The notes under the pieces: generated by a model | Database searches by the model: none | The model's input: the letters and a program-made list of their open reading frames with translations, nothing else | What the model was told of the DNA's origin: nothing | Program-made: the position numbers and the translations under genes | Shown: piece after piece, positions 5,350 through 62,015 of the stretch | Layout of the letters: the number at the start of each line of letters is the position of its first letter | Numbering within the stretch: the first letter of the stretch is position 1 | Assembly: GCA_000999095.1 (NCBI GenBank) | Contig: LCFP01000002.1 | Span: forward strand, 5,736 to 69,735 | DNA: 64,000 nucleotides | Source: Candidatus Gottesmanbacteria bacterium GW2011_GWA2_43_14 | GTDB lineage: Bacteria > Patescibacteriota > Microgenomatia > 2-02-FULL-39-11 | Direction: 5' to 3'

Positions 5350-5571
5350 TCCGAGATTAATTTCCAAGACGGTCTTGTAAATTTAGATTCAACACGATGT
5401 GTTCCTCTGTTTCTTATACTAAAGTTTTTTTAACATACGATCGGCTATCTTTTGTAAACCGCCTTGTACCGAATTGTACAGGCTATTGGACGAAGTTCTA
5501 ACATATTATTTATTTTTCAGCTCTCTTTTCGGTGCGAAGTGATTAGCTATGATTTGTGCTCCCGACCTTAA

Positions 5572-6003: not shown

Positions 6004-6144
6004 TATCTAATTTTAACAGATTTTCCTCCGAGTTGCGGACAGTATTGAGAACTTATATTTTAGCCTGTCAGATAAGCTTATTTAATTATATGTACAGGCT
6101 ACTGGACGATGTTGTAACTTATTTCGCAAAGCAAGTTGGGTCAA

Positions 6145-6618
6145 TTATCTTTTTATTTCTTGCTCTACTTGTAAAACATACGTATCTCCACTGGAAGTTA
6201 TTATTCGTAAGAACCATTTACCATCTTTTGTAAGTATTCCGTCAGCGTTCTCTCCGTTTGTCATATTTAAAACATTAAACGTCGCTTTGATATTTTCAGG
6301 TCCTTTTTGATTATAGAATGTAAAATTTCTTGTTGATTCATCTTTTAATCTTTCTTCGTAAACAATAATTGCACCTTCGTATTCTAAACCTTTTAAATCC
6401 GAATCTTCAACTTTGTTTATTCTCAATGCTTGAGGTAAAGAAGTAAACCCATGAAAACGAAGGTTGGTTTCAAAACCCTGAATAAGTCTGTCTTGCCCGT
6501 AAGTTTCGCCAATGTTTTTAGTTTTTGTTCCATCAATCGGAGATAATCGGTTAAATTTATCAATGCTTTGATATAAATTTGATAAATTATTTTGAATAAT
6601 TGCTGGTCTTATATCCAT
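6145..6618 (-). CDS. Hypothetical protein
   Basis: 157-aa ORF with AT-rich codon usage like the host. No recognisable motif. Confidence 0.35.
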   Translation of the reverse strand: MDIRPAIIQNNLSNLYQSIDKFNRLSPIDGTKTKNIGETYGQDRLIQGFETNLRFHGFTSLPQALRINKVEDSDLKGLEYEGAIIVYEERLKDESTRNFTFYNQKGPENIKATFNVLNMTNGENADGILTKDGKWFLRIITSSGDTYVLQVEQEIKR

Positions 6619-6938
6619 AATTTTGGTCTTTTAAGAATAATCTAATACTTATACTATAATTTGTAAAGCGAAATAAACGAAATAAATTACAGATATAAAT
6701 TGATATAGTAGCGTCTATAAATTTGTACACCTTATTTAACGATATTCAAACCGAAACTTTGGACTATTGGAATAATATTTTCCTTAATTTAAAAGACTAT
6801 ATTTGTACTAGGCTCTGAAGTTAGGATCTCTTTAAAAATACTATTAGAACGAACCACATAATTACATTTCTCCTATATTCAAATATATTAATTGCTTATC
6901 CTATTTAAATAAAATAATATCGAATTAAATATTTATAA

Positions 6939-8147
6939 TTGAAAATGAAAAATGAAATAAATATATGGTCAATAAAGAATAAAAAAAATAAATTTCTTCA
7001 GATCAAATATTTCTTAATATTATTAGCGCTACTTTTGATCGTATTCGCTATCTATTTCCAAATTTTAAATAAAATTAATTTATTAACGATTCAATTTCAA
7101 ACTACTAATCCATCTCCTACTATTAATCCGGAAGAAGTAAAAAAGGTTAAAAAAGAAAAGTACGTTCAAAATATTCTTTCGTCTATGACACTTGAAGAAA
7201 AGATCGGACAGATGATTATGTGGGGTATAAATGAACCTGTATTATCTTCCGAATCAGCATCTATGATAGAAGATACTCATGCAGGAGGAGTGATAATAAT
7301 GATTAATAAAGATCAAGTATTCACACCACAACAGATCAACAAGCTAACTCATCAAATCAAGTATTTAAATAACAAAATACCGCTTTTTATTGCCATTGAT
7401 GGAGAAATCGGAATAATAAAATCTAAAATATCTGGTTTTGAAAATTATAATCAGTTTCCAGAATATATGGATGACAGTAAATTCTGCTCCGAAGTATCTG
7501 ATATATCAAACTTTCTTTATGATAATGGAATTAATGTTAACTTTGGAATTATTGCTGATATTGGTTGGAATCAAGGTTTTATCAAATACCGAACATATGG
7601 AAATACTCCTGAAAGTGTAAGAAACAGAATTACTACAGCAATTGATTGTTCAAATAATAATTTACTTATAACTGTAAAACACTTTCCCGGGCATGGAAGA
7701 ACTGTAGTAGATTCTCATTATACTTCTCCCATTATTGAGACCGACTATGACAAATGGCTAAAAACAGATAAAGTTCCTTTTCAAGAAGCTATAGATAAAA
7801 AAGTGGATCTCGTTATGATGGGACATTTGATTTATAACAAAATCGCTAGTGAACCAGCCAGTTTATCACTGGTTCATAATAATAATGTCCGTCAAATGGG
7901 TTTTGATGGAATTATTATTACTGATGATTTGGGTATGTTAGAAAGTAGTGGAATAGAACCTAAAGAAGTTCTAAATAAGGCAATTAATGCTAAAAATGAT
8001 ATTTTGTTATATGTAAACCATAGGCTTGATGCGAATGAAATAATCAATCAAATCGTTAATGAAGTTGAAATTCATAATATTTCTGTAAATAGAATAAATG
8101 AAAGTGTTCAACAAATATTAAAAAGTAAATATTCAATAATTGATTAA
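6939..8147 (+). CDS. Glycoside hydrolase family 3 N-terminal domain protein (NagZ-like beta-N-acetylhexosaminidase), membrane-anchored
   Basis: EEKIGQMIMWGI and KHFPGHGRTVVDSHYTSP (the GH3 KHFPGHG motif). N-terminal TM segment. Confidence 0.7.
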   Translation: MKMKNEINIWSIKNKKNKFLQIKYFLILLALLLIVFAIYFQILNKINLLTIQFQTTNPSPTINPEEVKKVKKEKYVQNILSSMTLEEKIGQMIMWGINEPVLSSESASMIEDTHAGGVIIMINKDQVFTPQQINKLTHQIKYLNNKIPLFIAIDGEIGIIKSKISGFENYNQFPEYMDDSKFCSEVSDISNFLYDNGINVNFGIIADIGWNQGFIKYRTYGNTPESVRNRITTAIDCSNNNLLITVKHFPGHGRTVVDSHYTSPIIETDYDKWLKTDKVPFQEAIDKKVDLVMMGHLIYNKIASEPASLSLVHNNNVRQMGFDGIIITDDLGMLESSGIEPKEVLNKAINAKNDILLYVNHRLDANEIINQIVNEVEIHNISVNRINESVQQILKSKYSIID

Positions 8148-8267
8148 TTACCTAAATTGTGCTCTTTCAGTCGTTGTTTAAGATTTTCAGAGTATCCGAT
8201 GTAAATCCAAGAAGGGAAATTTATACTTTGTAAAACATAAACGTAGTGAAACTTAAACATAAAAATA

Positions 8268-8306
8268 GGGACGCACCAGCCGGTGCATCCCTCGCTTTAT
8301 TGTTTT
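8268..8306. terminator. Bidirectional intrinsic terminator-like hairpin
   Basis: GGGACGCACC-AGCC-GGTGCATCCC, a 10-bp stem with one mismatch, followed by CGCTTTATTGTTTT on the + strand. An A/T-rich run also precedes it on the other strand. Lies downstream of the GH3 gene. Confidence 0.45.
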
Positions 8307-8703
8307 AAATACAGTTTCATTATTATACGGATTGGATTCCTGACTTCGGACATTTAGTGCCCCAAAGACCGTAATTTCTCCAGTTGTCCACAAAGTTTTG
8401 GATCTTCAATTGTGGTTTCCACAAATCCAGTTTCTCCAGTCTTCAGAATGGTTATCTGTGGGCTAAAATCTTTTGAGCCACTTTTAAGAGGTGTCCGAAG
8501 TCAGGTGACTTTCTCTTTTTTAATAGACCAACACCGGATAGTTTGTTGATATGAAAGGTAACGGTGGGCTGCCGCAGGGATAAGTGTTCCACAATTTCGG
8601 TAACCGTTGCTTACCTTCCGATTTTTTTAAGGTAATCCAAAATGGTCAGCCTGGACGGAATACTGGCTGTTTCCAAACACTGTCGGCATCTCTGGTGAAT
8701 CAT
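8297..8703 (-). pseudogene. Disrupted paralog of the ArsR-family regulator gene at 11086..11385 (frameshifted, with the MITE inserted)
   Basis: The minus strand gives MIHQRCRQCLETASIPSRLTILDYLKKIG (compare CHKCLKNLMEPSRLKIFDYVQKS). After a frameshift it gives RQPTVTFHINKLSGVGLLKKRK (compare RQPTVTFHVNKLAEAGLLQKKK), then the MITE, then NPIRIIMKLYLKQ* (compare EVIIQTKHL). Confidence 0.5.
8339..8506. mobile_element. MITE-like non-autonomous element, 168 bp, with perfect 14-bp terminal inverted repeats (CCTGACTTCGGACA ... TGTCCGAAGTCAGG)
   Basis: Perfect 14-bp TIRs read directly from the sequence. The element interrupts the reading frame of an ArsR-family paralog, and its 168-bp length equals exactly 56 codons. 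No internal ORF. Confidence 0.55.
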
Positions 8704-8748
8704 ATTTATTGGTATCTATCGGAAGAATATTATTTAAACACCAAAAAG

Positions 8749-9672
8749 TCAATTATTATAGCTTATCAGGAGAGCTCCGTCATCGTAAATCATACCCACT
8801 CCCGGAGCGTAGCGTTTGGTTGAAGGCGGAGTTTCTTCAACATAAAGTACATTATTAAAAATTCCTGCGGGAGTGTTATAATTTTGTTCAAATCTGATAT
8901 GGGCAGCCCTGTCCATAGCTATACCTGGAGCTACTTCCTGCTGGTAAGTTTGTCCCACAGTTGGATTAGCCGGCATGACAATTCCCGGTTTATTTGATCC
9001 TTCTCCGGCCCTCCAGGCACCGGAATGACCGACAATTTGCCCGCCGGAATAGATATCAACGTCCTCTCCGTAATAGCAGACCGTACCGTCCGGGGCGGCA
9101 ACAAAGAAATTACGGGAAATTTCAATAAGATTCCCGTTATTGGTTTCATATTCTTCCACTACCCTGGTTGTGATTCCCGCAACGACTTCAGTCTGATTTA
9201 ATACTGAAAATTTTACCGTAAAAGTTCCGTCGGATATGGTATTAACTTTACCTACCGGAAGGGGAAAATAAGGATTGGTTATATTTAATGAGAAAGGTCC
9301 GTTGGTTGGGTCGCAGATCGAAATATCCAGTTCTCCGGTTGCAGGTTGAGTAGGCTGGGTACCGGTTACCGTAGGAAAAGGGCTTGAATTTTTATTGTAA
9401 TTATTCAGCCAGATAACGTAATCAAGACCGTCAACCTTTCCGTTATTGTTGAAATCTCCGGATAGCCTGCCGTCGCTGACTGTTTTGTTATAATTTTTAA
9501 GCCAGATAACATAATCAATTCCATCCACTTTGCAGTCACGGTTTGCGTCCCCCGCAAGCTCCGTAAGGCAGGTTTGGGCCTGAACTTCAGGAACCGGTTT
9601 ATTCAGAAAATAGAAATCTGTTAATAAAATTATTAATGAAAGAAGAATGTAGGCAAATATTTTCCTAAACAT
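8749..9672 (-). CDS. Secreted protein with a dockerin type I repeat pair
   Basis: Signal peptide MFRKIFAYILLSLIILL...AQ. Two dockerin repeats: DANRDCKVDGIDYVIWLKNY and DFNNNGKVDGLDYVIWLNNY. Confidence 0.6.
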   Translation of the reverse strand: MFRKIFAYILLSLIILLTDFYFLNKPVPEVQAQTCLTELAGDANRDCKVDGIDYVIWLKNYNKTVSDGRLSGDFNNNGKVDGLDYVIWLNNYNKNSSPFPTVTGTQPTQPATGELDISICDPTNGPFSLNITNPYFPLPVGKVNTISDGTFTVKFSVLNQTEVVAGITTRVVEEYETNNGNLIEISRNFFVAAPDGTVCYYGEDVDIYSGGQIVGHSGAWRAGEGSNKPGIVMPANPTVGQTYQQEVAPGIAMDRAAHIRFEQNYNTPAGIFNNVLYVEETPPSTKRYAPGVGMIYDDGALLISYNN

Positions 9673-11085: not shown

Positions 11086-11385
11086 ATGCTTGTGGGTGAC
11101 GATAGATTAAAATCTATATGTATGAATAAATATTGCCATAAATGTCTGAAAAATCTGATGGAACCATCCCGTTTGAAGATTTTCGATTATGTGCAGAAAT
11201 CTACAGACAGAGTAACCCTGGGGACTCTGGTCAACTTTACCAGACTGAGGCAACCGACAGTTACTTTCCATGTCAATAAGTTGGCGGAAGCGGGACTGCT
11301 GCAAAAAAAGAAATTCGGCCGCGAAGTCATTATCCAGACAAAACACCTCCCCGAACGCTGCACCACCTGTCCCATTTTTCACTAA
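11086..11385 (+). CDS. ArsR/SmtB-family HTH transcriptional regulator
   Basis: About 90 aa; an N-terminal CxxC (CHKC) precedes the wHTH LRQPTVTFHVNKLAEAGLL. A degraded paralog lies at 8297..8703. Confidence 0.55.
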   Translation: MLVGDDRLKSICMNKYCHKCLKNLMEPSRLKIFDYVQKSTDRVTLGTLVNFTRLRQPTVTFHVNKLAEAGLLQKKKFGREVIIQTKHLPERCTTCPIFH

Positions 11386-13496: not shown

Positions 13497-14876
13497 TTGA
13501 CAGACATATCAATTGACACTTCAATTTTCCGGGATTACGACATCCGGGGCATCTATCCTGAACAAGTCAATGAACAGACTTTTCTCGTCATTGGCAAGTC
13601 TCTCTCCTCCTTTCTTAAAGTGGATAAAATATCAGTTGGCTTTGACGCCCGCCTGTCATCAGAAAAACTGTCTCAAAGCCTGATATCGGGAATAACCTCG
13701 ATGGGAACGGATGTTGTCACTTTAGGACAGATATCAACGGAAATGAATTATTTTGCATCTGGCAGGTACGGTTTTCCGGCATCTGTCATTGTCAGCGCCT
13801 CACATAACCCTCCGCAATATAACGGTCTGAAAATAGTTAAGAAAGGGGTTGTGCCTTTACACGGGAGTTTTGGTCTGCCCGAAATCAAAGAACTTGCTAT
13901 AATCCAAAAATTTAACAACGCGACGCGAACGGGCAAAGTAATTAGTATGGACATTAGCGATGATTGGTTGGATCATCTGCTTTCTTTTATTGATCCGAAA
14001 AAATTGGCCGGCATGACGGTTGTGGTGGATACGGGAAACGGTATGGGGGGACCGACCTGGGAAAAAATCAACCGCAGATTGCCTTCCATTAAAATTATTC
14101 CGCTTTTTTTTAAACCGGACGGCCATTTCCCCAACCATCTGCCGGATCCTTTAAATCCCGATAATCTGGTCGCTTTGCAGGAAAAAATCAGGGTTACTAA
14201 AGCTGATGCAGGAATTGCCCTGGACGGTGACGCTGACAGACTTTTTACCGTAGATGATAAAGGAGATCTTTTATCCGGAACCTTAACCTGTGCCATGCTT
14301 GCCGAACATCTGCTTCTGACCAGAGGTTCAGGACCGGTTTTATACAGTATCACCACCGGAAAAATAGTGCCTGAAACAGTTAAAAAGCATAAAGGCATAC
14401 CATTCAAAACACGCGTCGGCCATTCTTTTATCAAAACTGAAATGAAAAAAAGGCATGCCCTTTTTGCCGGAGAACATTCGGGCCATTTTTATTTCCGGGA
14501 TAATTATAATGCTGATTCAGCCTCGATAGCCGCGCTTTTATTTTTGGAATTTCTTGCCGTCAAAGGCAAAAAACTGTCGGAATTGCGTAAAACCTATGAA
14601 AGCCATATCAGCTCGAGTGAAATTAATTTTCTGGTTGACGATACGGAAAAATTTCTCAATAATATAAGGAAGCACTTCGCCGGAAAAGAGCTTGATCTGA
14701 TTGACGGTTTGACTTTGGACGAAGGCAGCTGGTGGTTTAACGTGCGTGCTTCCAAGACTGAACCTTTAATCAGATTAAATATGGAAGCAGACAACCCTCT
14801 TCTTTATAAGCAAAAATATAAGGCGATTAATACGGTTATCAGGCAGCTCGGTGGTACTCCCAAAATTGAAACATGA
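13497..14876 (+). CDS. Phosphomannomutase/phosphoglucomutase
   Basis: Active-site SASHNP motif (SVIVSASHNPPQYNG) and metal-binding site GIALDGDADR. Confidence 0.85.
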   Translation: MTDISIDTSIFRDYDIRGIYPEQVNEQTFLVIGKSLSSFLKVDKISVGFDARLSSEKLSQSLISGITSMGTDVVTLGQISTEMNYFASGRYGFPASVIVSASHNPPQYNGLKIVKKGVVPLHGSFGLPEIKELAIIQKFNNATRTGKVISMDISDDWLDHLLSFIDPKKLAGMTVVVDTGNGMGGPTWEKINRRLPSIKIIPLFFKPDGHFPNHLPDPLNPDNLVALQEKIRVTKADAGIALDGDADRLFTVDDKGDLLSGTLTCAMLAEHLLLTRGSGPVLYSITTGKIVPETVKKHKGIPFKTRVGHSFIKTEMKKRHALFAGEHSGHFYFRDNYNADSASIAALLFLEFLAVKGKKLSELRKTYESHISSSEINFLVDDTEKFLNNIRKHFAGKELDLIDGLTLDEGSWWFNVRASKTEPLIRLNMEADNPLLYKQKYKAINTVIRQLGGTPKIET

Positions 14877-41680: not shown

Positions 41681-41756
41681 TGGTGACCCGGGAGCGAATC
41701 GAACGCTCAACCTTCCCGTTAGAAGCGGGATGCTCTGTCCGTTGAGCTACCGGGCC
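41681..41756 (-). tRNA. tRNA-Arg (anticodon UCU), CCA encoded
   Basis: Reverse complement GGCCCGGTAGCTCAACGGACAGAGCATCCCGCTTCTAACGGGAAGGTTGAGCGTTCGATTCGCTCCCGGGTCACCA. Confidence 0.85.
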
Positions 41757-41763
41757 ATTCCGG

Positions 41764-41835
41764 AGCGGCGGAGGGGATTTGAACCCCTGACCTTCTCCTT
41801 GGAAGGGAGACATTCTACCGCTGAACTACCGCCGC
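41764..41835 (-). tRNA. tRNA-Gly (anticodon UCC)
   Basis: Reverse complement GCGGCGGTAGTTCAGCGGTAGAATGTCTCCCTTCCAAGGAGAAGGTCAGGGGTTCAAATCCCCTCCGCCGCT. Confidence 0.85.
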
Positions 41836-41841
41836 TTAAGG

Positions 41842-41914
41842 TGCCGAGGGTCGGAGTCGAACCGACATCATGTGTTTTTCAGACACACGCCGTGACCACC
41901 TTGGCTACCTCGGC
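41842..41914 (-). tRNA. tRNA-Phe (anticodon GAA)
   Basis: Reverse complement GCCGAGGTAGCCAAGGTGGTCACGGCGTGTGTCTGAAAAACACATGATGTCGGTTCGACTCCGACCCTCGGCA. The D-arm is atypical, hence lower confidence. Confidence 0.75.
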
Positions 41915-41949
41915 TTATAAAATATATCTTATCACAAAACCCCGAAGTG

Positions 41950-42023
41950 TGGACCCGAGAGGTCTCGAACCTCTGACCTTTGCGATGTAAGCGCAACGCT
42001 CTGACCAACTGAGCTACGGGTCC
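41950..42023 (-). tRNA. tRNA-Val (anticodon UAC)
   Basis: Reverse complement GGACCCGTAGCTCAGTTGGTCAGAGCGTTGCGCTTACATCGCAAAGGTCAGAGGTTCGAGACCTCTCGGGTCCA. Confidence 0.85.
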
Positions 42024-42099
42024 AACGAGTGTTTTTAGCTCCAACTATTTTATAGGAATACTTTAACTGGCGCAACCTGATTTGGTACAATAAAAGCAT

Positions 42100-42170
42100 T
42101 GCGGGGTCGTCTAATGGTAGGACAGCAGCCTTTGGAGCTGTTTATCATGGTTCGAATCCATGCCCCGCAG
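42100..42170 (+). tRNA. tRNA-Gln (anticodon UUG)
   Basis: TGCGGGGTCGTCTAATGGTAGGACAGCAGCCTTTGGAGCTGTTTATCATGGTTCGAATCCATGCCCCGCAG, with a U1-A72 pair typical of tRNA-Gln. Confidence 0.8.
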
Positions 42171-42176
42171 CAAAAT

Positions 42177-42794
42177 ATGAATAAAAAAATGAAGATATTA
42201 TTTGTTTTGCTTATCTTATTGGTGTTATTAGGGTATAGATATTATAAAAATGCAATATTAGATGATTACAATTCAAATGAAATGTTAAACCTAACCATTT
42301 CTCAACCCCCATATCCATCAGAACAGCCGCATTTAAATAATTCCAAAACAAAGTACATTTATAATGATCAATATATTACGTTTGAATATCCCCAGGTCTG
42401 GAAAGCAGATTATAACCGGCAAATTGGAAATCCGTATGTTGTTAATGTTGACTTTACTGGTGAATGTAATCCATATCGGGTAGTTTCTTTTTCTTACAAG
42501 AATACTAATCCGAATGACTCAGAAAGTTTCACAGTAGGACAAAAAAACCCACATGGTCCCGGAAACCAAACATCAAAAACGATAAAAATTAACGGTATTA
42601 CCGTTGGTGAAAATATACAACCAGTAGGTGATGGATCAGGTGGATATGAGCCTAAAGTAGTTATTGATCTATTATCTAAATCTAAGAAATTCCATTTCTA
42701 TTTTATTGCTGTAATAGGATATCGGAATTCGTTTGAAGAGACGTATAAAATAGATTTATTACCTATTTTAAATAGTATAGAATTACTGGATTAA
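42177..42794 (+). CDS. Hypothetical secreted/membrane-anchored protein
   Basis: Start trimmed to the ATG after the tRNA-Gln (MNKKMKILFVLLILLVLLG...), which is an N-terminal signal/TM segment. Confidence 0.45.
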   Translation: MNKKMKILFVLLILLVLLGYRYYKNAILDDYNSNEMLNLTISQPPYPSEQPHLNNSKTKYIYNDQYITFEYPQVWKADYNRQIGNPYVVNVDFTGECNPYRVVSFSYKNTNPNDSESFTVGQKNPHGPGNQTSKTIKINGITVGENIQPVGDGSGGYEPKVVIDLLSKSKKFHFYFIAVIGYRNSFEETYKIDLLPILNSIELLD

Positions 42795-42886
42795 AAGAAG
42801 CATTATTTGAATTTGTCTTGAAATAGGTTCTAACTTCGTCCACAGTTCGCAGCAGATTTTGATAAGTAGGTCGGGCACGAAAATTG

Positions 42887-42933
42887 CTCGCCGCGGGTGG
42901 GTTCGCGGCGAGGGCGTCAAAGCCGCCTTTTTT
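42887..42933 (+). terminator. GC-rich hairpin plus T6 intrinsic terminator
   Basis: CTCGCCGCG-GGTGGGTT-CGCGGCGAG (perfect 9-bp stem), then GGCGTCAAAGCCGCC and TTTTTT. Confidence 0.5.
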
Positions 42934-42990
42934 GAAACGGACTGCGAGTTTACGATCCTTTAAAAAGAAGTTCGAGCCGACAGTTGCGGA

Positions 42991-43016
42991 GGCGCGGCGG
43001 GTGGAGGCGCCGCGCC
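42991..43016. repeat. Second GC-rich hairpin with a loop similar to the first
   Basis: GGCGCGGCG-GGTGGAG-GCGCCGCGCC, a perfect 9-bp stem. On the minus strand it sits downstream of gene 43104..44246. Confidence 0.4.
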
Positions 43017-43038
43017 GGAGCGTAATATTTATATAAAT

Positions 43039-43068
43039 GAGGTTCGGCATTTTTTGTAAAGCGACAGC
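43039..43068 (+). repeat. Conserved intergenic motif, copy 1: GAGGTTCGGCATTTTTTGTAAAGCGACAGC
   Basis: 29/30 identical to copy 2 at 44313. It is preceded by TATAAAT. Confidence 0.7.
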
Positions 43069-43103
43069 AAGTTGGAATTAGAAAGATTTTTAAAACTTTC
43101 TTG

Positions 43104-44246
43104 TTACTTTTTCCTTTTTAAAAGGATCACAACAATTACCGCAAATATCAGTACACCGATGAATATAAGTATTGTCGGGGTAATACGAAACGGTGTAGTT
43201 TTTGTTCCGTTTTCCTTATATCCCTGAGTGTCACTCTCATCTGTATTTAAATTTCCGTTATCGTTAAGTTCGGCTTGTGCCAGTTCTGTTTCAATAAGCT
43301 CAGTTTCTTCTTTAAGAACATCAGTATAATTAAATTCAGTTACCTCATATCCATCTCCATTAACAGTATATCTGTCACCCGGACTTAGCGGTAATTTTCC
43401 GTTATCCGGCAGGGTCACCTCTACGCTTCCTTCCATGACATCGAATTTAGTTTCATTTGTTTCTTCTAAGTGAGATACGCCAAACGAAGTTCCCAGGACA
43501 CCGGCAACTGTCAGATAGGTTTCTACTTGAAAAGTTTTTCCCTGCTTCTTTAAATTAAAAAACGTTTCACCAAATACTATCTGCACTCCCTGAAATAACA
43601 TGGTTACCTTGGTGTTTGATTTTATTTTCAGTATTGATCCGTCGGGATATTTAATAATAAATCTTGAGTTTGGACCTGTCTTGATTACATCCCCTTCCCG
43701 AATATTAATAGGTCCGTCAGATGGAATATCTTCATAAGTCTCACCGTTATTGCGTGAAAACTGAGCAGTTCCTTTCACAAGCCCTCCGTCTACACCTTGC
43801 TTAGGAAGAAAATCAGTTTCTATATTCCACGATCCGTCAAAAGCCTCCGGATTATCAACTGTAAAATCAACTCTTAATGTATCGAAGACAGTAGTATAGG
43901 TACCTCTAATTAAATTAAACGAAAGGTCACCTATGATAAATTCCCCGTTTGGACCTCCTGAAAATGTACCTGTAAATTCATCACCACCGTATCCGTTACA
44001 ATTTGAAGTGCACTCTGCCCTACCAGAGACCTGTGAGTATTGTCCTGATGGATCCAAAGCTCCTACATTCCAAAACTCCAGATGATATACCAAAGTAAAA
44101 TTCCACACTTGGACAGTATCTGACGTTGCCGTGACCTTTTGGGGAGGTGGATAAGCATGGACATACCGGATCGGCCAGATGAATACAAAAAATAGTATTA
44201 AGCCGATGATTGTAATAAGGTTTCTCCGGATTTTCATAATCTTCAT
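43104..44246 (-). CDS. Cell-surface protein with N-terminal signal/TM, FecR-like beta domain and C-terminal TM anchor
   Basis: N-terminal MKIMKIRRNLITIIGLILFFVFIW and C-terminal ILIFIGVLIFAVIVVILLKRKK. The segment GDVIKTGPNSRFIIKYPDGSILKIKSNTKV is FecR-domain-like. Confidence 0.4.
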   Translation of the reverse strand: MKIMKIRRNLITIIGLILFFVFIWPIRYVHAYPPPQKVTATSDTVQVWNFTLVYHLEFWNVGALDPSGQYSQVSGRAECTSNCNGYGGDEFTGTFSGGPNGEFIIGDLSFNLIRGTYTTVFDTLRVDFTVDNPEAFDGSWNIETDFLPKQGVDGGLVKGTAQFSRNNGETYEDIPSDGPINIREGDVIKTGPNSRFIIKYPDGSILKIKSNTKVTMLFQGVQIVFGETFFNLKKQGKTFQVETYLTVAGVLGTSFGVSHLEETNETKFDVMEGSVEVTLPDNGKLPLSPGDRYTVNGDGYEVTEFNYTDVLKEETELIETELAQAELNDNGNLNTDESDTQGYKENGTKTTPFRITPTILIFIGVLIFAVIVVILLKRKK

Positions 44247-44312
44247 TATTTATTAAATGGAAGTTTACCAGAAACTATCTAATAATTACAATTTCATCAA
44301 CATTTATAATAG

Positions 44313-44342
44313 CGAGGTTCGGCATTTTTTGTAAAGCAACAG
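44313..44342 (+). repeat. Conserved intergenic motif, copy 2: GAGGTTCGGCATTTTTTGTAAAGCAACAGC
   Basis: Preceded by a perfect TATAAT at 44303-44308. Lies 180 bp upstream of the Tat-lipoprotein gene. Confidence 0.7.
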
Positions 44343-44522
44343 CCAATAAGAAGAAAACGGACATGAGTTCCTGTTTAAGTTCCATCACGAATGCGTTAAA
44401 CGTGGAATTGTCCGCTTCTTTTCAAGGCCAAGGACTTCAGGAGAAGTCTACGGGATATCATGAACCAGGACACATATTTGCCCAATTCTTGATTTGATGC
44501 TATTATTTGCCATTACAAAATT

Positions 44523-45500
44523 ATGACTACCCGGCGTGAATTTTTAAAATTAGCAGCGGCATCAATTTTGGCTGGATGCATTCCTCCAGCTCCACCCAGT
44601 ACAACGCCTTTTGAGATTATACCTACCCCATATCCAGAATTTGTTGACCCGAAACTAATAACTTACGGCCAGCAGTTGGCGGATTGGACTGTTGCCGATA
44701 CGCTGATGGTAAAAAAATTTTCGGAAATTGACCAGGCAGCCCTGCTATTGTCCGGTGAAACCGATCCGGGACAGCTCATGTCATATGTCAATATACCGCT
44801 TGGTTACCTGATAAACAATGAGAGAGATCCGTACCTACGCTTTAATGCCGGAATCCAGACGGATCCTGATGCCAAGTTCAACATGACTACCAAAGCTGGT
44901 GACCCAATTATTGTACCAATTTCCTCAAATGTCACATTTGAATTTGTACTACCCCAAAATTTGGAGAATTCGGGGTTTGCCAAAATTACTATGTTGCGAA
45001 TGGGACTGGAGGTATTGGATTTCCCATACTATTGTGAAATTTATCGCCAACAGTTGGAAGAAACGGGTATACAGATTGATGATCAGAGTGTTTCAGCTCT
45101 GGGAATACCGCCCGACCTGGTCAATTTTTCCATATCCAGGGATATGGACGCTATTCTCCTCGCAACTGGCAAATCTCCTCTTTTACCTTACCTGACAAAA
45201 ATGGGCAGCGATATCCGCGCGTCCGTGACTTATGCCAATTGGCTAACCCAATATGATGCAGATGAAACCGACCTACCTCAAGACCAAACCGAACTTTTAT
45301 CTACTCTTCGCATTATCAAAACATTAATGATAGATAAAGAGCTGATCACAAAAGAAGAATCAGGACTTTATGTATGGACCAATGGTGCCCCTCCCCAAAT
45401 CAATGCTTCTGATTTTGTACAATTGATTGATGAACTGCAACATAGATATCAAGAAAGTAACTTACAGGGTTTTTTCATAAGCGAAAAAACACTTCAATAG
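44523..45500 (+). CDS. Tat-secreted lipoprotein, function unknown
   Basis: Twin-arginine motif TRREFLKLAAASILAGC with a lipobox LAGC. Confidence 0.5.
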   Translation: MTTRREFLKLAAASILAGCIPPAPPSTTPFEIIPTPYPEFVDPKLITYGQQLADWTVADTLMVKKFSEIDQAALLLSGETDPGQLMSYVNIPLGYLINNERDPYLRFNAGIQTDPDAKFNMTTKAGDPIIVPISSNVTFEFVLPQNLENSGFAKITMLRMGLEVLDFPYYCEIYRQQLEETGIQIDDQSVSALGIPPDLVNFSISRDMDAILLATGKSPLLPYLTKMGSDIRASVTYANWLTQYDADETDLPQDQTELLSTLRIIKTLMIDKELITKEESGLYVWTNGAPPQINASDFVQLIDELQHRYQESNLQGFFISEKTLQ

Positions 45501-45528
45501 AGGTTCGAAATTTTTTGTAAACTGACAG
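45500..45528 (+). repeat. Conserved intergenic motif, copy 3 (diverged): GAGGTTCGAAATTTTTTGTAAACTGACAG
   Basis: Overlaps the stop of the upstream gene and ends 15 nt before the ATG at 45544. About 24/29 identical to copies 1 and 2. Confidence 0.55.
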
Positions 45529-45543
45529 TCGGAAAACAGCTTC

Positions 45544-46272
45544 ATGTTCAGTTCTCTAAAGAATTATTTATACAGGCATCTATTCTCAATTGCCCCCGAA
45601 AGTTTACGGCAGATTTATTTCCGGACAAAAGTACTTGTTCCCAAAAAAGTATTAACACAAAAATTTTCAGAAGCTATTGAATTTCTGAAGCATAACGGCC
45701 CCATCAATGATTATTTGGAATTCGGTGTTTTTCGGGGAGATTCCTTAATTTGTATGTATCAGGCGTTAAAACAGCATAAAATTAATCATTCTAGATTATT
45801 CGGATTTGATTCTTTTGAAGGTTTGCCCGAAATTAAAGACAAATATGACAAAAAGTTACCTTGGCAAAAGGGGGAATTTGTCTCCGCCTTGGCAACAACC
45901 AGAGGCAACTTAAATAGAGCACATGTGAATTGGAATCGTGTTTTCCTGATAAAAGGCTATTTCAATAACACTTTGAATAAAAATCTCATAGATAAACACA
46001 ATCTAAAAAGTGCGAGCATCATCATGATTGACTGTGATTTATATTCATCAGCAAGAGAAGCTTTGGATTTTTGCGCTTCAATGATAAATGATCGTACCAT
46101 TATTTTTTTTGATGACTGGGCAGCCGGAGGTGAAAAGCTGGCTTTTAACAAGATGCTCAAAGCCAACCCCGATCTTATAGCTCAGGAATTCGGTTCATAT
46201 GTCCATTCAGAACAAAAAAATCCATATACCGCAAAAATATTCCTGGTGACCAGAAAAAAAAGAAAAAATTAA
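45544..46272 (+). CDS. TylF/MycF-like (macrocin-O-methyltransferase family) SAM-dependent O-methyltransferase
   Basis: LEFGVFRGDS (glycine-rich SAM motif), FGFDSFEGLP, and IDCDLYSS with a FFDDW metal-binding-like motif. Confidence 0.55.
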   Translation: MFSSLKNYLYRHLFSIAPESLRQIYFRTKVLVPKKVLTQKFSEAIEFLKHNGPINDYLEFGVFRGDSLICMYQALKQHKINHSRLFGFDSFEGLPEIKDKYDKKLPWQKGEFVSALATTRGNLNRAHVNWNRVFLIKGYFNNTLNKNLIDKHNLKSASIIMIDCDLYSSAREALDFCASMINDRTIIFFDDWAAGGEKLAFNKMLKANPDLIAQEFGSYVHSEQKNPYTAKIFLVTRKKRKN

Positions 46273-52325: not shown

Positions 52326-52898
52326 ATGTCAAACGTTGAAACAAAAAAGGAGTTGTCGAGAGAACAACGTGAAGAACTACTGAAGAGCTTGAAAGCCCGT
52401 TTTGAGAAAAACATGAACCGCCATAAAGGTCTTGAATGGGCTAAAGTACAAGCAAAGCTGGAAGCGAGTACTGAAAAACTGTGGTCACTAAGTGGAATGG
52501 AAAGAACTGGCGGTGAACCGGATGTTATAGGTCTCGATAAAAAGACGGGCGAATACATTTTTTATGATTGTTCAGCGGAAACACCCCGCGGCCGCAGAAA
52601 TGTTTGTTACGACCGTGCAGGGCAGGAGGCAAGGAAAGCATTTAAACCAGAAGATAACGCTATTGATATGGCAGCTACCATGAGCATTGAACTTTTAACG
52701 GAAGAACAATATCGAGGGTTGCAGAAACTTGGAAATTTCGATACTAAAACGTCGAGCTGGTTGAAAACACCAATCAGTATTAGAAACTTAGGCGGCGCGT
52801 TGTTTGCTGATCGCCGCTATGGCAATGTCTTCGTGTATCACAACAGTGCGCCCTCATACTATGCTGCTCGCGCGTTCCGTGGCTCGCTAAGGGTCTAA
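52326..52898 (+). CDS. DUF4256 family protein
   Basis: MSNVETKKELSREQREELLKSLKARFEKNMNRH...GGEPDVIG...FYDCSAE...RRYGNVFVYHNSA matches my recollection of the highly conserved DUF4256 family. Elevated GC. Confidence 0.55.
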   Translation: MSNVETKKELSREQREELLKSLKARFEKNMNRHKGLEWAKVQAKLEASTEKLWSLSGMERTGGEPDVIGLDKKTGEYIFYDCSAETPRGRRNVCYDRAGQEARKAFKPEDNAIDMAATMSIELLTEEQYRGLQKLGNFDTKTSSWLKTPISIRNLGGALFADRRYGNVFVYHNSAPSYYAARAFRGSLRV

Positions 52899-56938: not shown

Positions 56939-57676
56939 ATGGGACTAATCGAAACAGAGTATCTCGGAGAACATATTCCGAAAACAGGATTGACTGCCGT
57001 AAGGGAATTCTTTTACAGAACAAAAAATCCTTTTGTTGTTATTTCTGATAATGGTATGCTTTTTCCTTCTGATGCCGACCCAAGCCCGGTAATTAGATAT
57101 CCTGCGCTAGATTATTTAAAAACACATTTGGCAACTTCGGCAACCGGTAGGAAATTATTAAAAATTGCCTTTGGACAAACTCGTGGACAATATCAAGATT
57201 TTGTTCCTGATAATCCTATAAAAATTATATTCGGCCACTCCGTATTCAAACAGTTAGAGAGCGACCATCCGGAAGCCCAATTATTGACAGTTGTCCGCGA
57301 CCCTCTTCCCAGAACAGTTTCCCAATATTTCTTTGTATTAAATGATAAAGCAATTACCGGTTACCTTCCCGACTGGGCAATCGGCAACGAAGATGAACTT
57401 CCCCTGTCACAGTTCCTCACAGATCCGGAAACTGCAAATTTCCAAACAAAGTATCTTAACGGTTATATTTCCAAACTGAAATTTATCGGGGTTACGGATA
57501 AATTAGAAAATTTTGTCAGATACTTATTTCCTGATAAAAAAATTGTGTTGGGGCGAAGGAATATTACCAAAAGACCAAAACTTCATATTCCGGATCAAGT
57601 TATTTACGAATTTAAGAAACTGAATAAGCAGGATTATGAATTATATGAATACGCTAAAAATACGTTCAACGCTTAA
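56939..57676 (+). CDS. PAPS-dependent sulfotransferase-like protein
   Basis: IPKTGLT resembles a 5'-PSB motif and VVRDPLPRTVSQYFF resembles the 3'-PB motif RDPxxRxxSxY/F. Confidence 0.5.
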   Translation: MGLIETEYLGEHIPKTGLTAVREFFYRTKNPFVVISDNGMLFPSDADPSPVIRYPALDYLKTHLATSATGRKLLKIAFGQTRGQYQDFVPDNPIKIIFGHSVFKQLESDHPEAQLLTVVRDPLPRTVSQYFFVLNDKAITGYLPDWAIGNEDELPLSQFLTDPETANFQTKYLNGYISKLKFIGVTDKLENFVRYLFPDKKIVLGRRNITKRPKLHIPDQVIYEFKKLNKQDYELYEYAKNTFNA

Positions 57677-57831
57677 AGTCCTTACGGACATCCAACCTTC
57701 CCGACATTTTGGTGATCCCGCTAGTACCTTAAACAGACTGAAGGAATTCTTTAAATTATTCCTTTCTGATGGACTAAACTCCGAGTTTGCTTATGCATTT
57801 GGACTAAAAGATGTATAGCAAAGTACAATAT

Positions 57832-58866
57832 CTATTTCTCTCTTAAGACATAAAAAGTAGCTTTGCCTTTTGCTTTCCTACTAATTAAACCTAACTCTAT
57901 TAATTTTTTAAAATCTAATGCTCTAGTTGCCTTCGCTCGGTCAACTAATTTTGCATAATCCCGGTCAGAGATAAATCCCCTTTCTTTAATAAACTCTAGC
58001 ATCTTTAGGTGATAGGGTTTAAGTTGGGTTTCTGGACTCATTCCAACCTGTGGAAGTAGTTTTTGGACCCTTAGTAGTTCATCGATAATTCCTTCTGTAA
58101 AATATTCTAGCCAAGGAGTGAAATCAATTTTATCTGTTAATTCATAGTAATTGCCAAATTCTCCTACAGTTTGAAAATATTTAGTAACATTTTTATTGTA
58201 ATAATGCTCAAAACTGAAAAGGTTAAAAGTATTTAATCCCATTTCAGCCAAAAGCACTTTTGTAGCAAGGCGGGTTGTTCTTCCGTTTCCATCCATAAAA
58301 GGGTGAATAATTACCATTTGCTTGTGGAATATACCAGCTAAAATAAGAGGATCAATTTCGTTTCGGTTGCTATTTACAAACCCAATTAAATCCTCTATTA
58401 GTTTCTTTACATCTTTTGCATCAGGAGGTAAATATATAACTTTTCTAGTTCTCGGATCGTTTACAACTACTGGTTTCTCTCGCAATTTTCCAGATTCAAA
58501 TTTAGGTAATAATCCTTTAGTAATTTCTTTTTGAATTCTTAATATCAGATTAAGAGATAATTTTACTTGTGCCTTTTCAAGTTTTTCATTTAAATTCTGG
58601 AGTGCTTGATTGTAATTTAAAATCTCCTTCTCGCTATCCCTTATATGAACAGACTTTGATATGAGGATTTTTTTAACCTCGGTTAAAGGAAAAGGATTCC
58701 CTTCGATACTCGTTGAGGCGTATGTTGAAACAGCCCTTGCAGTCTTTTCAAGCTCTATTAAAACAACATTAGGAAACCGCCTATTATTTAGTTCATTTAC
58801 TAAAGCATTAACTCGTTTAATATTTGATAAAAGACGATCTGTAATAGTATATCGAGGTGTTAACAT
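57832..58866 (-). CDS. Fic family protein (AMPylase-type) with C-terminal winged-helix domain
   Basis: Canonical Fic motif HPFMDGNGRTTR. Confidence 0.85.
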   Translation of the reverse strand: MLTPRYTITDRLLSNIKRVNALVNELNNRRFPNVVLIELEKTARAVSTYASTSIEGNPFPLTEVKKILISKSVHIRDSEKEILNYNQALQNLNEKLEKAQVKLSLNLILRIQKEITKGLLPKFESGKLREKPVVVNDPRTRKVIYLPPDAKDVKKLIEDLIGFVNSNRNEIDPLILAGIFHKQMVIIHPFMDGNGRTTRLATKVLLAEMGLNTFNLFSFEHYYNKNVTKYFQTVGEFGNYYELTDKIDFTPWLEYFTEGIIDELLRVQKLLPQVGMSPETQLKPYHLKMLEFIKERGFISDRDYAKLVDRAKATRALDFKKLIELGLISRKAKGKATFYVLREK

Positions 58867-59192
58867 ATAGTCGTATTATAGACGAATAGTAGACGATTCG
58901 CAATGGGTAAAATTTCGATCCTTGTGACCAGCCTCGACTAGTCGTCGAGTCTAGACGGGCCTAGATGAATCATCAAAATAGTTTACTCTGAGCACTTTCG
59001 ATAAACTCAGTGTAAATTTGTCGAAGGGCTCTCTTAAAGTAAGCAAAGCTTGCCTTTTGCTACCGCAAAACGTAAGAGCCTGTCCTGAGCGATCCTGAGC
59101 TTGTCGAAGGATACTTTCACCACAAGGATCATTCGGTAAAAGTATTATATCTGTTTCTCGGCTGATAACACAATTGCCACTTAAGAAATTAT

Positions 59193-59727
59193 CTAGGGAT
59201 GTGAGTTCGGCAGAGGTCTTAAATCTTTAAATTCCAAATTCGGTCTAATCTCTCTAGTTGGTTGTTCACTATTTCTGTTAATCCAAATAGCATTAAAACC
59301 CTGTTCTTTGGCTGGGATAATATCATGAATATAGCTGGCGGCTACATGAAGTACTTCCTCTTTTTTAGTACTAAATCTTTTAAGCATTTCCTGCCAGTGT
59401 CCATGAGCTGGTTTATAAGAGCCAACTTCTTCAGCAGTTACCACCCCATCAAAGTCAATTCCCATTAGTTTAATTGATCTTTTAATAATTTCATTATCAA
59501 TGTTGGAGAGAATTATAAGTTTATAGCCCTTTTGTTTTAACTCAGCTAAAAAGTCATGCGTTTCTGGAAAAGGTTGCCAGTTATAAATGGAATCTGCAAA
59601 CTCAAGAGCATTTTCGTCTGAAATGTAAAAACCTATTTGTTTTAAAAGTTTTTTGGCTGAAAGTTGTAAAACTTCATAATATTTTCTATCTCTTCTATAC
59701 GCTTATATTCTGATGAGTGCATTTTTT
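59193..59727 (-). pseudogene. 5'-truncated HAD-superfamily hydrolase (haloacid dehalogenase-like), lacking motif I and a start codon
   Basis: The open frame AYRRDRKYYEVLQLSAKKLLKQIGFYISDENALEFADSIYNWQPFPETHDFLAELKQKGYKLIILSNIDNEIIKRSIKLMGIDFDGVVTAEEVGSYKPAHGHWQ...HVAASYIHDIIPAKEQGFNAIWINR carries HAD motifs II-IV. It has no DxDGT motif, and no ATG occurs between the upstream stop at ~59728 and M at 59465. Confidence 0.5.
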
Positions 59728-59799
59728 TGCGAGTTAATATTTCAATACAGTCGTGTTACTATTAATGATTATCTGATCCCATATATTTAATCAGTAATT

Positions 59800-61299
59800 A
59801 TGTCAAAAAAATCTTATTGTTATTTGTTTGCAACGGTTATGCTAGGCGTATTCCTGCGGCTTTATCGGTTCCCACAAACGTTAATTTTAGGTACCGATCA
59901 GGGAGGTGCCTATATATTAGCTGATAGAATAATCAACCAGGGTCATATTTTATTGGTAGGTCCTCTAACTAGTCTTTTGCAGGTTAATCTTTTACCGCCT
60001 GCTTTTTATTATATCGTGACTTTTGTTTATCTTCTCTTTAGAAGTGAAATCAGTGTATCTCTTGCCTTTTCATTTGCCGGAATTGTCTCTGTTATTCTTA
60101 TTTATTTTCTAGGTAAAAATATATTCAATGCTAAAAGCGGCTTAATTTCGGCATTAACATATGCCGTTTCTCAATCCATGGTCTGGTACGGCCGTAATAT
60201 GTGGGAGCCCCATCTGGTCCCTTTTTTTGTCATTTTGTCATTATTATTTCTATTTAAAGCCAAAAATCAAACTAAATTAATATTTCTTCACCTATCGTTA
60301 TTCTTTTTTTTCCTCAGTTTTCTTTACGTTTCATCATTACTTTTATTACCTGTTTATTATTTCTGCTTTGCTTATTTTTATAAATCAGTTAAATCGTCAG
60401 TACGCTGGCCGTATATTAAAACTGTATTATTATTTCTTATATACGGCGGTCTTGTTTATCTTCCGGTTATTATTTTCGAGCATACCCGTTCATATCCGTC
60501 CTTAAATTATCTCTTCCAGGTATTGCAAGGTAAAACTGAATATGTTTCTTTTCAAAGTCCAAATTATTTGACTTCGGTAACTACCCATATTTTTCTCTTT
60601 ATAAATTCCATCTTCATCAATGTTAATATTTTCCAGTCACTAATTATATTTATTATATTTATAGGACTTGTTTCTTATATAACTGTAAAAACAAAAAATA
60701 ACCGCTTTAATCTGTTTGTATTATTAATGTTTTTCATCATAGCTTTTTTACTGTCCGGATTATACAGCCAAAAACCTTCAGACTATAGACTGGCCAGTCT
60801 TTATCCGGTATTTTTTTTATTGATTGGTGCCGTTACAAAAGCCGGAAATCGAACTATTTTATTTTTGATTATTTTTATAATAATTGCATTAAATATAAAA
60901 TCAACTCTCGATAGTATAAGAAACCTTAATCTGCAAAATTATCTGCATGCCTACCGTGTTGCAACAGAAATTCTTATCCGGTCTGAGAATCAAAAATTCA
61001 CCATCTATACCGTTAAACCCTTCGATTTTAGCAATTTCCATTCTACCCCATATTGGTGGGCATTGGAGAAACTTACGGGGAAAAGATTAATTACTTTAAA
61101 TGATAGGGGTAACTGGATTAACCAGGATTTAGATTTAAATAGCAGTCTGATTTACTTAATCTGCAGTGATACGGAAAATAAATCTTCATTTCAGGATAAA
61201 TGTTTAGACTATTTTGCTTCAAGCTATCGGTTATCTGACCCGGTAAAATATTTTTCCATTGATAATGCCACCGTCTATGAGTTTCAGGGAATCTATTGA
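59800..61299 (+). CDS. GT-C family membrane glycosyltransferase (PMT/ArnT-like, GT39-type)
   Basis: MSKKSYCYLFATVMLGVFLRLYRFPQTLILGTDQG... and about 12 TM helices; similar class to the gene at 2791..4134. Confidence 0.5.
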   Translation: MSKKSYCYLFATVMLGVFLRLYRFPQTLILGTDQGGAYILADRIINQGHILLVGPLTSLLQVNLLPPAFYYIVTFVYLLFRSEISVSLAFSFAGIVSVILIYFLGKNIFNAKSGLISALTYAVSQSMVWYGRNMWEPHLVPFFVILSLLFLFKAKNQTKLIFLHLSLFFFFLSFLYVSSLLLLPVYYFCFAYFYKSVKSSVRWPYIKTVLLFLIYGGLVYLPVIIFEHTRSYPSLNYLFQVLQGKTEYVSFQSPNYLTSVTTHIFLFINSIFINVNIFQSLIIFIIFIGLVSYITVKTKNNRFNLFVLLMFFIIAFLLSGLYSQKPSDYRLASLYPVFFLLIGAVTKAGNRTILFLIIFIIIALNIKSTLDSIRNLNLQNYLHAYRVATEILIRSENQKFTIYTVKPFDFSNFHSTPYWWALEKLTGKRLITLNDRGNWINQDLDLNSSLIYLICSDTENKSSFQDKCLDYFASSYRLSDPVKYFSIDNATVYEFQGIY

Positions 61300-61559
61300 T
61301 ACGGCGTAGTGAAATTGTTAATTGGAATTCCAGATTAGCTTGCTGTTCTTTGGGAAGATCAGTACCAGTTACGGGTATACCGGATACGGTTTGCTGTTGA
61401 AACTCAAATTTAGCTTGGGATAGATAGCTTCAAGCCCCATCTCCCGCAATTGTCTGTGATGAGAACAGTAATATCTTTGAAGCCTGCAAATACGTCTATC
61501 CCCAGGCTGCAGTTCAGCTATGCCAGAATCATTAACAAGGAGAATATCCGAAGATCACT

Positions 61560-62015
61560 TGATCTTACTGTTAATCAGCAATATTTAGGCTTTATGAGGT
61601 AAATTGAAGAACTTTTTTCCTTCAAAAGATCTCCGGACGATTTTAACCGGAAAGCCAAGAATATCTTGAAAGAATATGAAGGGAATTTTTTATGTATTTC
61701 CATTATGGTTTCAATCTACCGTAACCAGCAACTTCTTCTTGGTTGGAGAGAAGGCAAGCATATTCCAACCACCACCAATCTCATTGAATGTTTTAATTCC
61801 CATCTTCAAGGAAGACTTAAAACCATCTAGGGATTTGAAAGTTTTAAACATGCGGATTTATGGCTTAATGGATACTTCCTAAGACGGAGATTAAAGATAT
61901 TTACCAGTTGTCAGGGTAAATTCAGAAGTTTGAACGGTCACAGCAGCCTGCAAAAAGCGAAAATACCTAATGTTGATATACCGGCCTATTTCGATGAAAA
62001 ACGAGACCGTTTTTG
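61560..62015 (+). pseudogene. IS1595-family (IS1595/ISAs1-like) transposase C-terminal remnant, interrupted by in-frame stops
   Basis: Frame 1 gives LGWREGKHIPTTTNLIECFNSHLQGRLKTI*GFESFKHADLWLNGYFLRRR. This resembles, from memory, the IS1595-type C-terminal HTN.IEGFWS.LKR motif. Internal TAG stop and no intact start. Confidence 0.4.

Follow-up and report, generated by a model that had tools for sequence, protein, structure and literature searches.

Repeats past a tRNA-Gln gene in a Gottesmanbacteria genome as probable attachment-site relics of a large serine recombinase element family

Large serine recombinases (LSRs) usually target protein-coding or other non-tRNA sites, and their characterised sites are usually quasi-palindromic; the canonical reaction between attP and attB turns attP into attL and attR. 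Tn4451 and Tn5397 are mobilised by LSRs (TnpX and TndX) and have a target that resembles the joint of their own ends, a property that would permit insertion beside resident copies and so give rise to tandem arrays; unlike the element described below, they are larger, carry resistance or conjugation genes, cross over at a GA dinucleotide and are not linked to tRNA genes. In the sites of serine integrases, the distal (ZD) motif lies 5 bp nearer the centre in attB than in attP half-sites, and the minimal attB is about 10 bp shorter than attP (Rutherford et al., 2013; PMC3783163). Here we analyse a 64-kb stretch of DNA (hereafter the window) from a Candidatus Gottesmanbacteria genome of the candidate phyla radiation (CPR) obtained from Rifle groundwater, in which a motif of about 30 nt recurs among surface-protein genes past a tRNA-Gln gene. 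Our comparisons indicate that the copies are probably recombination-site relics of a tRNA-Gln-targeting LSR element family and bound inserted cassettes. To our knowledge the mobile elements of CPR bacteria (Patescibacteria) are barely described, and nothing specific was found in the literature on CPR islands or on LSRs with tRNA targets.

The pattern GAGGTTCGNNATTTTTTGTAAA matches the window exactly at 43039, 44314 and 45500, always on the plus strand, where 0.06 matches are expected by chance and none of 100 shuffled sequences held three or more; the looser pattern GGTTCG-N14-18-RACAG recovered the same three sites and none further. Copies 1 and 2 are alike at 29 of 30 positions and their likeness runs over 54 nt (43024-43077 and 44299-44352, 81% identity), over which copy 3 is further diverged (61%). 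No fourth copy was found in the 64 kb by pattern, and a profile search (see below) adds only the segment 42886-42939. The scans thus bear out the original prediction that three same-strand copies exist, two of them with a single difference in 30, and place them at 43039-43068, 44314-44343 and 45500-45528, so that the second stands one base to the right of the interval first given (44313-44342). Its description of the surroundings was accurate as well: a TATAAT-like word is present 5' of each copy; copy 3, whose first base is the last base of the TAG stop of a 325-aa open reading frame (ORF), is separated by 15 nt from the ATG at 45544; between copy 2 and the ATG at 44523 there are 179 nt (rather than 180); and copy 1 lies beyond the 3' end of the minus-strand gene at 43104..44246, 35 nt past its stop. 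Among the functions that had been suggested for the motif, it is the recombination site that comparative evidence backs, in the form of LSR-linked junctions in other CPR contigs.

When species-representative genomes (a set that does not include the source genome) were scanned with an 18-base pattern, 40 single matches were obtained, 39 by chance in unrelated taxa and one in a metagenome-assembled genome of Patescibacteria. A scan of metagenomes with the motif returned 12 contigs, and in 10 of these the motif closes a conserved GC-rich unit, of which it makes up the final ∼32 nt; the unit is composed in order of a variable hairpin P1, a linker LA/LB (LA, GTTCGAGCCGACAGTTT; LB, AATCGCGCGCGCAAAAAATAG), the near-invariant hairpin P2, a variable hairpin P3, CTAATCAAAT and the motif proper, which we call M (consensus GAGGTTCGACATTTTTTGTAAACGGCCAGCCA). 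The 32-nt unit with the same end point is present in at least 14 unrelated contigs, beside LSR genes and tRNA-Gln. In the window, LA and P2 lie 5' of copy 1, and copies 2 and 3 are M alone. A profile of seven such units, all from outside the window, matched the window four times (nhmmer): at 42970-43087 (E = 1e-25), the 3' portion of which is copy 1 (M1), at 44311-44364 (copy 2, M2; E = 8e-7), at 42886-42939 (E = 9e-7) and at 45494-45536 (copy 3, M3; E = 2e-5), with no further match under E = 0.4. On this comparison, homology of the copies to the LSR-linked junction of other genomes is nearly certain. The hairpins themselves differ in their mode of conservation: P1 and P3 keep their shape with differing stems, C(GNA)G triloops, tandem G.A/A.G mismatches and compensatory changes, and P2 is near-invariant in stem and loop alike (bodies of the related loci L048, L051-L059 and L071-L075, and window 42987-43022).

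Three kinds of junction define the end of M. Its conservation stops exactly past CAGCCA in all copies compared, and what follows is either unrelated DNA or a conserved flank, S-X, where S is GTAAGAATTGGAGAGAGGTCGGG or a variant of it and X is a 12-bp GC hairpin followed by GTCAAATCCGCCTTTTTTGAAAC; the joint of M and S takes the form GTAAACGGCCAGCCA/GTAAGAA, with the slash at the breakpoint. S-X also lies directly 3' of the CCA end of tRNA-Gln in L052, L054, L071, L073 and L075. The identity of S-X between loci is 92-98%, as against about 75% across the tRNA-Gln gene and its flank in L052 and L054, which argues that S-X is mobile DNA inserted at a fixed phosphodiester. One breakpoint is therefore common to tRNA-Gln...CAGCCA/S, M...CAGCCA/S and M...CAGCCA/unrelated flank, and the same holds for a tRNA-Glu gene in L076. 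All four loci with sufficient upstream DNA, the window among them, have a co-oriented tRNA-Gln 5' of M, at 0.9-2.6 kb; in the window the distance is 0.9 kb.

M is related to the target by a constant offset. The 3' end of tRNA-Gln reads GGTTCGA-N12-CAGCCA and M reads GGTTCGA-N17-CAGCCA, with a T-run and GTAAA in the longer spacer; the forms found in the window, GGTTCGA-N12-CAGCA for tRNA-Gln and GGTTCGG-N17-CAGCA for M, differ by the same 5 nt. By analogy with the serine integrases we infer that GGTTCGA would be the zinc-ribbon-domain motif. Another Gottesmanbacteria genome (L076) carries a 57%-identical LSR beside tRNA-Glu in the same architecture, and there the equivalent of M is GTTCGAAT-N15-GCACAG, as against GTTCGAAT-N10-GCACAG in tRNA-Glu, each ending at the breakpoint and followed by the same flank. 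The 5-nt offset is thus found for the tRNA-Gln and the tRNA-Glu type, and in both types GTAAA is located 15 nt before the junction. This covariation of M with the target tRNA is the strongest evidence that M represents the P arm of a putative att site, and an attachment-site role for M seems to us quite likely.

About 200 nt past M/S-X, L053, L059 and L071-L075 carry a gene for an LSR (domains Resolvase, Recombinase and Zn_ribbon_recom), and in L076 too the LSR gene lies at this distance from M/S. In L071-L075 a tRNA-Gln on the opposite strand lies 3' of the LSR gene, with an inverted X'-S' 5' of that tRNA (L071, L073/L074 and L075; a diverged equivalent in L072), and a second, inverted copy of the unit body with M lies 2-3 kb off, beside unrelated DNA. 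This layout fits an element integrated at a tRNA gene, in which tRNA/S is attL, M/host is attR and an extra, intact attP-like M/S is kept beside the LSR gene. In L052 we found a 1.5-kb derivative without recombinase that consists of tRNA-Gln/S-X, three small genes and body-M/host. Homologues of the LSR number in the thousands, many of them about 90% identical across Gottesman-, Woese-, Curtiss-, Davies- and Collierbacteria. The C-terminal tail of the enzyme, through FKKGGF, is kept between the 57%-identical enzymes and is therefore genuine coding sequence, and LA, LB and X are conserved because they are part of the recombinase coding sequence.

Several further observations concern the LSR gene and its neighbours. 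Each of the linkers LA and LB repeats a few codons of the recombinase gene (TVGSN and KIARAKNS). In L071-L076 the LSR ORF runs through X'-S' and over the att junction, and its stop lies 15-63 nt inside the opposite-strand tRNA gene (318-1844 with tRNA-Gln at 1812-1885 in L075; 1631-3148 with tRNA-Glu at 3121-3195 in L076), so the last residues of the protein must differ between the integrated and the excised state. The LSR gene of L059 (3268-5742) is interrupted by an IS110-family transposase gene (372 aa). Genes of 82-96 aa with a GIY-YIG nuclease domain lie beside the motif or the target tRNA in L051 (65 nt past M), L057 (207-455) and L076 (3221-3511), and a LAGLIDADG-like ORF is located 5' of tRNA-Gln in L052.

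Read against these loci, the window appears to hold a decayed array past tRNA-Gln. Its minus strand encodes an LSR C-terminus at 42847-42990, which identifies the GC-rich intergenic stretch before copy 1 (42855-43038) as the 3' stump of an LSR gene; the remnant aligns to residues 454-501 of LSR P0134 and, on the plus strand, comprises an S-like flank, the X hairpin (42887-42912), GCGTCAAAGCCGCCTTTTTTGAAAC (42914-42938) and a linker GTTCGAGCCGACAGTTG (42970-42986), with the profile match at 42886-42939 inside it. M1 and M2 are each followed by ∼19-20 nt of S, so that the unit measures ∼54 nt, the size of a minimal attP; the two flanks are different S variants, and homology ends about 20 nt into S. 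The flank past CAGTC of copy 3 is not S-like. A candidate further copy, M0, has the spacing of M1 and stands directly 5' of the S-like flank; it went undetected in the profile search of the window. The coordinates of all features are collected in Table 1.

We propose that small integrative elements of CPR bacteria (Microgenomates), moved by an LSR, would insert right past the 3' end of tRNA-Gln. M would be one arm of the att junction and would mimic the tRNA end, by virtue of its T-loop-like GGTTCGA and terminal CAGCCA set 5 nt further apart, and its joining to the other element end, S, would create the ∼54-bp attP-like junction. The array would then consist of the 48-codon LSR relic flanked by M0/S and M1/S, the FecR-domain gene, M2/S, the ORFan lipoprotein gene and M3, that is, of tandem mini-elements: a cargo-less relic (42855-43068), a FecR-gene cassette and an ORFan cassette. 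An LSR would have recombined the sites, and the cassettes would have come by such recombination. ORFan surface-protein genes in a low-G+C patch (0.37-0.41, compared with ∼0.42-0.48 over most of the window) beside a tRNA cluster would thereby be explained as integrated cassettes. For the 325-aa lipoprotein, a search of 5.8 billion proteins returned the protein itself as sole match. The evidence somewhat favours this cassette-array history of the window, and the wider interpretation of the copies as relics of the LSR element family is, as stated above, probable.

Table 1. Features of the repeat-bearing interval of the window, from left to right (the slash marks the breakpoint).
Feature	Coordinates	Strand	Remarks
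tRNA-Gln(ttg)	42100..42171	+	3' end GGTTCGA-N12-CAGCA; presumably the attB-like type of target that the element family uses naturally
ORF, ∼205 aa	42177..42794	+	No Pfam match; between tRNA-Gln and the repeat relic
M0, candidate strongly diverged fourth motif copy	42826..42854	+	GGTTCTA-N17-CAGCA; read by eye, tentative
LSR gene remnant, last 48 codons (...TVGSNFFLKDRKLAVRFKKGGFDALAA...)	42847..42990	-	BLASTP 54% identity, E = 3e-13
P2, GC-rich 9-bp hairpin CGGAGGCGCGGCGGGTGGAGGCGCCGCGCCGGAGCG	42987..43022	+	Near-invariant across related elements
Copy 1 (M1, core 43039-43068) with ∼19 nt S-type flank CAGCAAGTTGGAATTAGAAAGA	43024..43087	+	attP-like M/S junction
FecR-domain membrane protein gene, 380 aa	43104..44246	-	Cassette between M1 and M2
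Copy 2 (M2, core 44314-44343) with ∼20 nt other S-type flank CAGCCAATAAGAAGAAAACGG	44299..44364	+	attP-like M/S junction
Tat-signal lipoprotein ORFan, 325 aa	44523..45500	+	Cassette between M2 and M3; no Pfam match
Copy 3 (M3, core 45500-45528)	45494..45536	+	nhmmer E = 2e-5; attR-like end
TylF-family methyltransferase gene	45544..46272	+	First gene past the array

The tRNA-Gln of Table 1 closes a tRNA cluster (41681-42171), and the ∼205-aa ORF that follows it is possibly the cargo of an older insertion. On the far side of the array, the next gene past the TylF-family methyltransferase gene is an LCP (LytR) gene on the minus strand. Two more low-G+C stretches (0.28-0.40), at 3001-9000 and 57001-62000, are possible further islands; glycosyltransferase (PMT_2), Fic, dockerin-like and unannotated genes lie in them.

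How the element compares with described systems can now be stated. It shares with the att sites of LSR integrases (Listeria A118/LI, Bxb1, phiC31) an LSR gene directly beside the site, a site of ∼50 bp, a proximal block common to both partners, a distal motif 5 bp further out in attP (PMC3783163) and a single sharp hybrid breakpoint. It differs in that it targets a tRNA gene at the 3' end, in that dyad symmetry is not significant, in that the autonomous elements have two inverted attP-like junctions around the LSR gene, and in that the LSR ORF reads over the junction into an opposite-strand tRNA; moreover, the window holds relics only. The tRNA islands of tyrosine integrases are alike in that a tRNA gene and a repeat of the same orientation form their two ends, the cargo varies and islands accrete in tandem, and a classical case, at a tRNA-Gly, occupies the same chromosomal place in the relative L068 (see below). 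M, by contrast, is a mimic with an A/T-rich spacer 5 nt longer, its identity to the tRNA amounts to 7 + 6 nt, and the linked enzyme is a serine recombinase. Integron cassette arrays resemble the window in their same-orientation, site-like repeats ∼1.2 kb apart with one gene, often an ORFan, per interval, whereas the window has neither IntI nor an attC palindrome with R''/R' cores and one of its cassette genes is reversed. Repetitive extragenic palindromes and their mosaics (REP/BIME) or miniature inverted-repeat transposable elements, finally, are likewise GC-rich hairpins in an AT-rich genome, intergenic and past co-oriented genes, and one mini-derivative (42855-43068) is without cargo; unlike them, the CPR element is of very low copy number (one exact copy in its sole carrier among the species representatives), is tied to an LSR and a tRNA, and is partly recombinase coding sequence.

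A number of points weigh against our interpretation. Neither the window nor ∼15 kb beyond it contains an intact recombinase gene, or an integrase, sigma factor or reverse transcriptase gene, so that present activity is unsupported. The tRNA-Gln of the window is directly followed by an ORF and not by S, and the array therefore does not start at a tRNA junction. Canonical chemistry consumes attP, and tandem attP-like junctions need another origin: elements might have undergone homologous exchange, targets might be chosen in a relaxed, TnpX-like manner, or larger elements might have decayed. Our interpretation does not account for the match of M1 and M2 at 29 of 30 positions, given that their S variants differ. 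Dyad symmetry at M/S does not exceed chance (best centre 8.7/25, compared with 6.3 ± 2.1 in shuffles), and the arms have only a YCGAC-like word in common. No excised or circular form of the element was found, and viral contigs were without element copies: they contained no copy of hairpin P2, and their matches to the motif were chance ones within coding regions.

An enclosure of the same pattern was seen in L054, where (oriented) positions 8460-8557 hold a second, direct copy of the element end, 1.5 kb past the first and internally deleted, in which LB and the 5' part of P2 are fused to CTAATCAAAAGACGTTTGACATTTTTTGTAAACGGCCAGCCA; the two copies enclose one 395-aa gene.

Lack of conservation in relatives had been named in the original prediction as one of two outcomes that would refute it, and the result is divided: the closest syntenic relative, L068 (LCP protein 69% identical), has no motif at up to three mismatches, and distant CPR genomes keep it as mobile DNA. 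Since L068 lacks it, the motif is not a regulatory element kept by vertical descent. At the same place L068 has a different island of 2.9 kb with an FHA-domain gene, bounded by tRNA-Gly(tcc) (14186-14258) and by direct repeats of the tRNA 3' end, of 45 nt (∼11225-11270) and ∼20 nt (∼11096-11115), and it also lacks the TylF-family methyltransferase gene; by this comparison the interval is evidently an integration hot spot. The tRNA block Gly-Phe-Val-Gln of L068 has the opposite orientation to that of the window. In all seven near-identical strain contigs the copies are the same, and they consequently give no information on constraint. A second strain contig, L042, is 99.7% identical over 13.7 kb, with almost all differences in two dense patches, one in the FecR-domain gene (43867-43993; 21 substitutions and a 3-nt insertion) and one in a DUF4256 gene (52466-52618; 17 substitutions); four other assemblies break at 43862-44046. 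A diversity-generating retroelement was ruled out for the FecR-gene patch, as the substitutions are not adenine-specific. Left of 41763, inside the tRNA cluster, synteny with L042 is lost, and purine-biosynthesis genes stand in place of the MacB transporter genes.

A bolder form of the recombination-site interpretation is doubtful, if conceivable. It supposes that the ∼54-nt M/S units are functional minimal LSR sites, each tagging a single-gene cassette, and that an LSR elsewhere in the genome captures, stacks and reshuffles cassettes past tRNA-Gln. If true, the system would handle cassettes like an integron but with a serine recombinase in place of a tyrosine recombinase, and its target would be re-addressable to other tRNAs by a swap of the 6-7-nt tail and the T-loop mimic, as in the tRNA-Glu variant.

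We consider it unlikely that the motif acts as a promoter or includes one, be it on the minus strand (a TTTACA -35 box with an adjacent A/T-rich -10 box), where copy 2 would serve the FecR-domain gene and transcription from copy 1 would run into the GC-rich relic, or facing outward at the element end. Such a role is suggested by TTTACA-N18-TATTAT on the minus strand at 44335..44306 (copy 2), with 10 of 12 consensus matches and ∼60 nt upstream of the ATG at 44246, by TTTACA-N17-TTTATA at copy 1, and by a co-oriented gene 45-250 nt past most related copies. However, the conserved motif does not include the -10 partner, which differs in relatives (TTTGAT, ATGTGT), TTTACA has become TTTATC in L057, and promoter-like sites are not clearly enriched in the region (14, against 8.7 ± 2.8 expected). 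A promoter also leaves unexplained why M mimics a tRNA end with a +5 offset, how tRNA-Glu became a target and why the breakpoints are exact, and it sits badly with a syntenic relative that lacks the motif. The minus-strand sequence at copy 2 may have a secondary, co-opted role as promoter of the FecR gene. On the plus strand, the idea that the copies begin transcripts found no support, as a sigma-70-like promoter was called at none of the three; a plus-strand transcript leader was rejected because copy 1 and the copies of L058/L059 face the 3' end of a convergent gene.

That the copies are neutral debris, for instance leftovers of a local segmental duplication, is in our estimation quite unlikely. 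Debris would agree with the lack of a recombinase gene nearby, with the identity of the copies in all strain contigs and with their absence from L068, but it does not predict the same unit, with the same end, in the many unrelated LSR- and tRNA-Gln-bearing contigs described above, nor an end of homology in M1 and M2 at roughly the size of a minimal att site. Because M1 and M2 carry unlike S variants, neither is simply a local copy of the other.

Least probable by far is that the motif forms the 3' end of a structured tRNA-like, CCA-ended small RNA (P1-P2-P3 and M), of which copies 2 and 3 would be fragments. The conserved structure of P1 and P3 with unlike stems, C(GNA)G triloops and tandem G.A pairs, the tRNA-like CCA end of M and weak minus-strand Rfam matches to small RNAs (tfoR, with 27 bits where the gathering score is 70) are in keeping with an RNA. 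Against this, Rfam gave no family, whether at the gathering score or, over 42600-45700, with a permissive E-value, ARAGORN called no tRNA or transfer-messenger RNA (tmRNA) at the copies, M is unable to form a T-arm or an acceptor stem, and M with its flanks folds no better than shuffles on either strand (z from -0.4 to +0.7), so that the RNA element first suggested finds neither a stable, shared fold nor a family. In addition, the G.U versus A.C evidence on the transcribed strand is contradictory, parts of the supposed RNA are LSR coding sequence, and P3 is missing from copies 2 and 3 and from the body in the window.

The remaining candidates were rejected on single grounds or a few. A promoter of the ECF (extracytoplasmic function) or sigma-54 type, GGTTCG-N16-GACAG, was discarded since sigma factor genes are absent from the window and its vicinity, the motif is confined to a 2.5-kb stretch and its spacer is as conserved as the 'boxes'; a tRNA or tmRNA remnant, since ARAGORN was negative and neither T-stem nor acceptor stem can form. 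The likeness of LB (GCAAAAAATAG) to a tmRNA pre-tag region is a coincidence, as LB encodes KIARAKNS of the LSR, and a tiny ORF (MRFDIFCKRPAS...) starting from the motif is without start codon in copies 2 and 3 and in L048. For an integron attC site, GTTCGGC fits GTTRRRY at 6 of 7 positions, with no inverse core, no inverted repeat over the copies and no integrase in the window. In a tRNA 3'-end repeat of the tyrosine-integrase kind more than GGTTCGA and CAGC(C)A should match tRNA-Gln, and here the 12-nt middle is replaced by an unrelated 17 nt.

Taken together, our comparisons point to a widespread LSR element family of CPR bacteria and to its likely attachment sites. The pairs of tRNA 3' ends and +5 mimics, and the retargeting from tRNA-Gln to tRNA-Glu, would illustrate the half-site offset model with independent genomic cases, and the family could supply new integrase/att pairs for genome engineering. 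For the annotation of CPR genomes, caution is indicated: repeats of this type should not be read as promoters or riboregulators.

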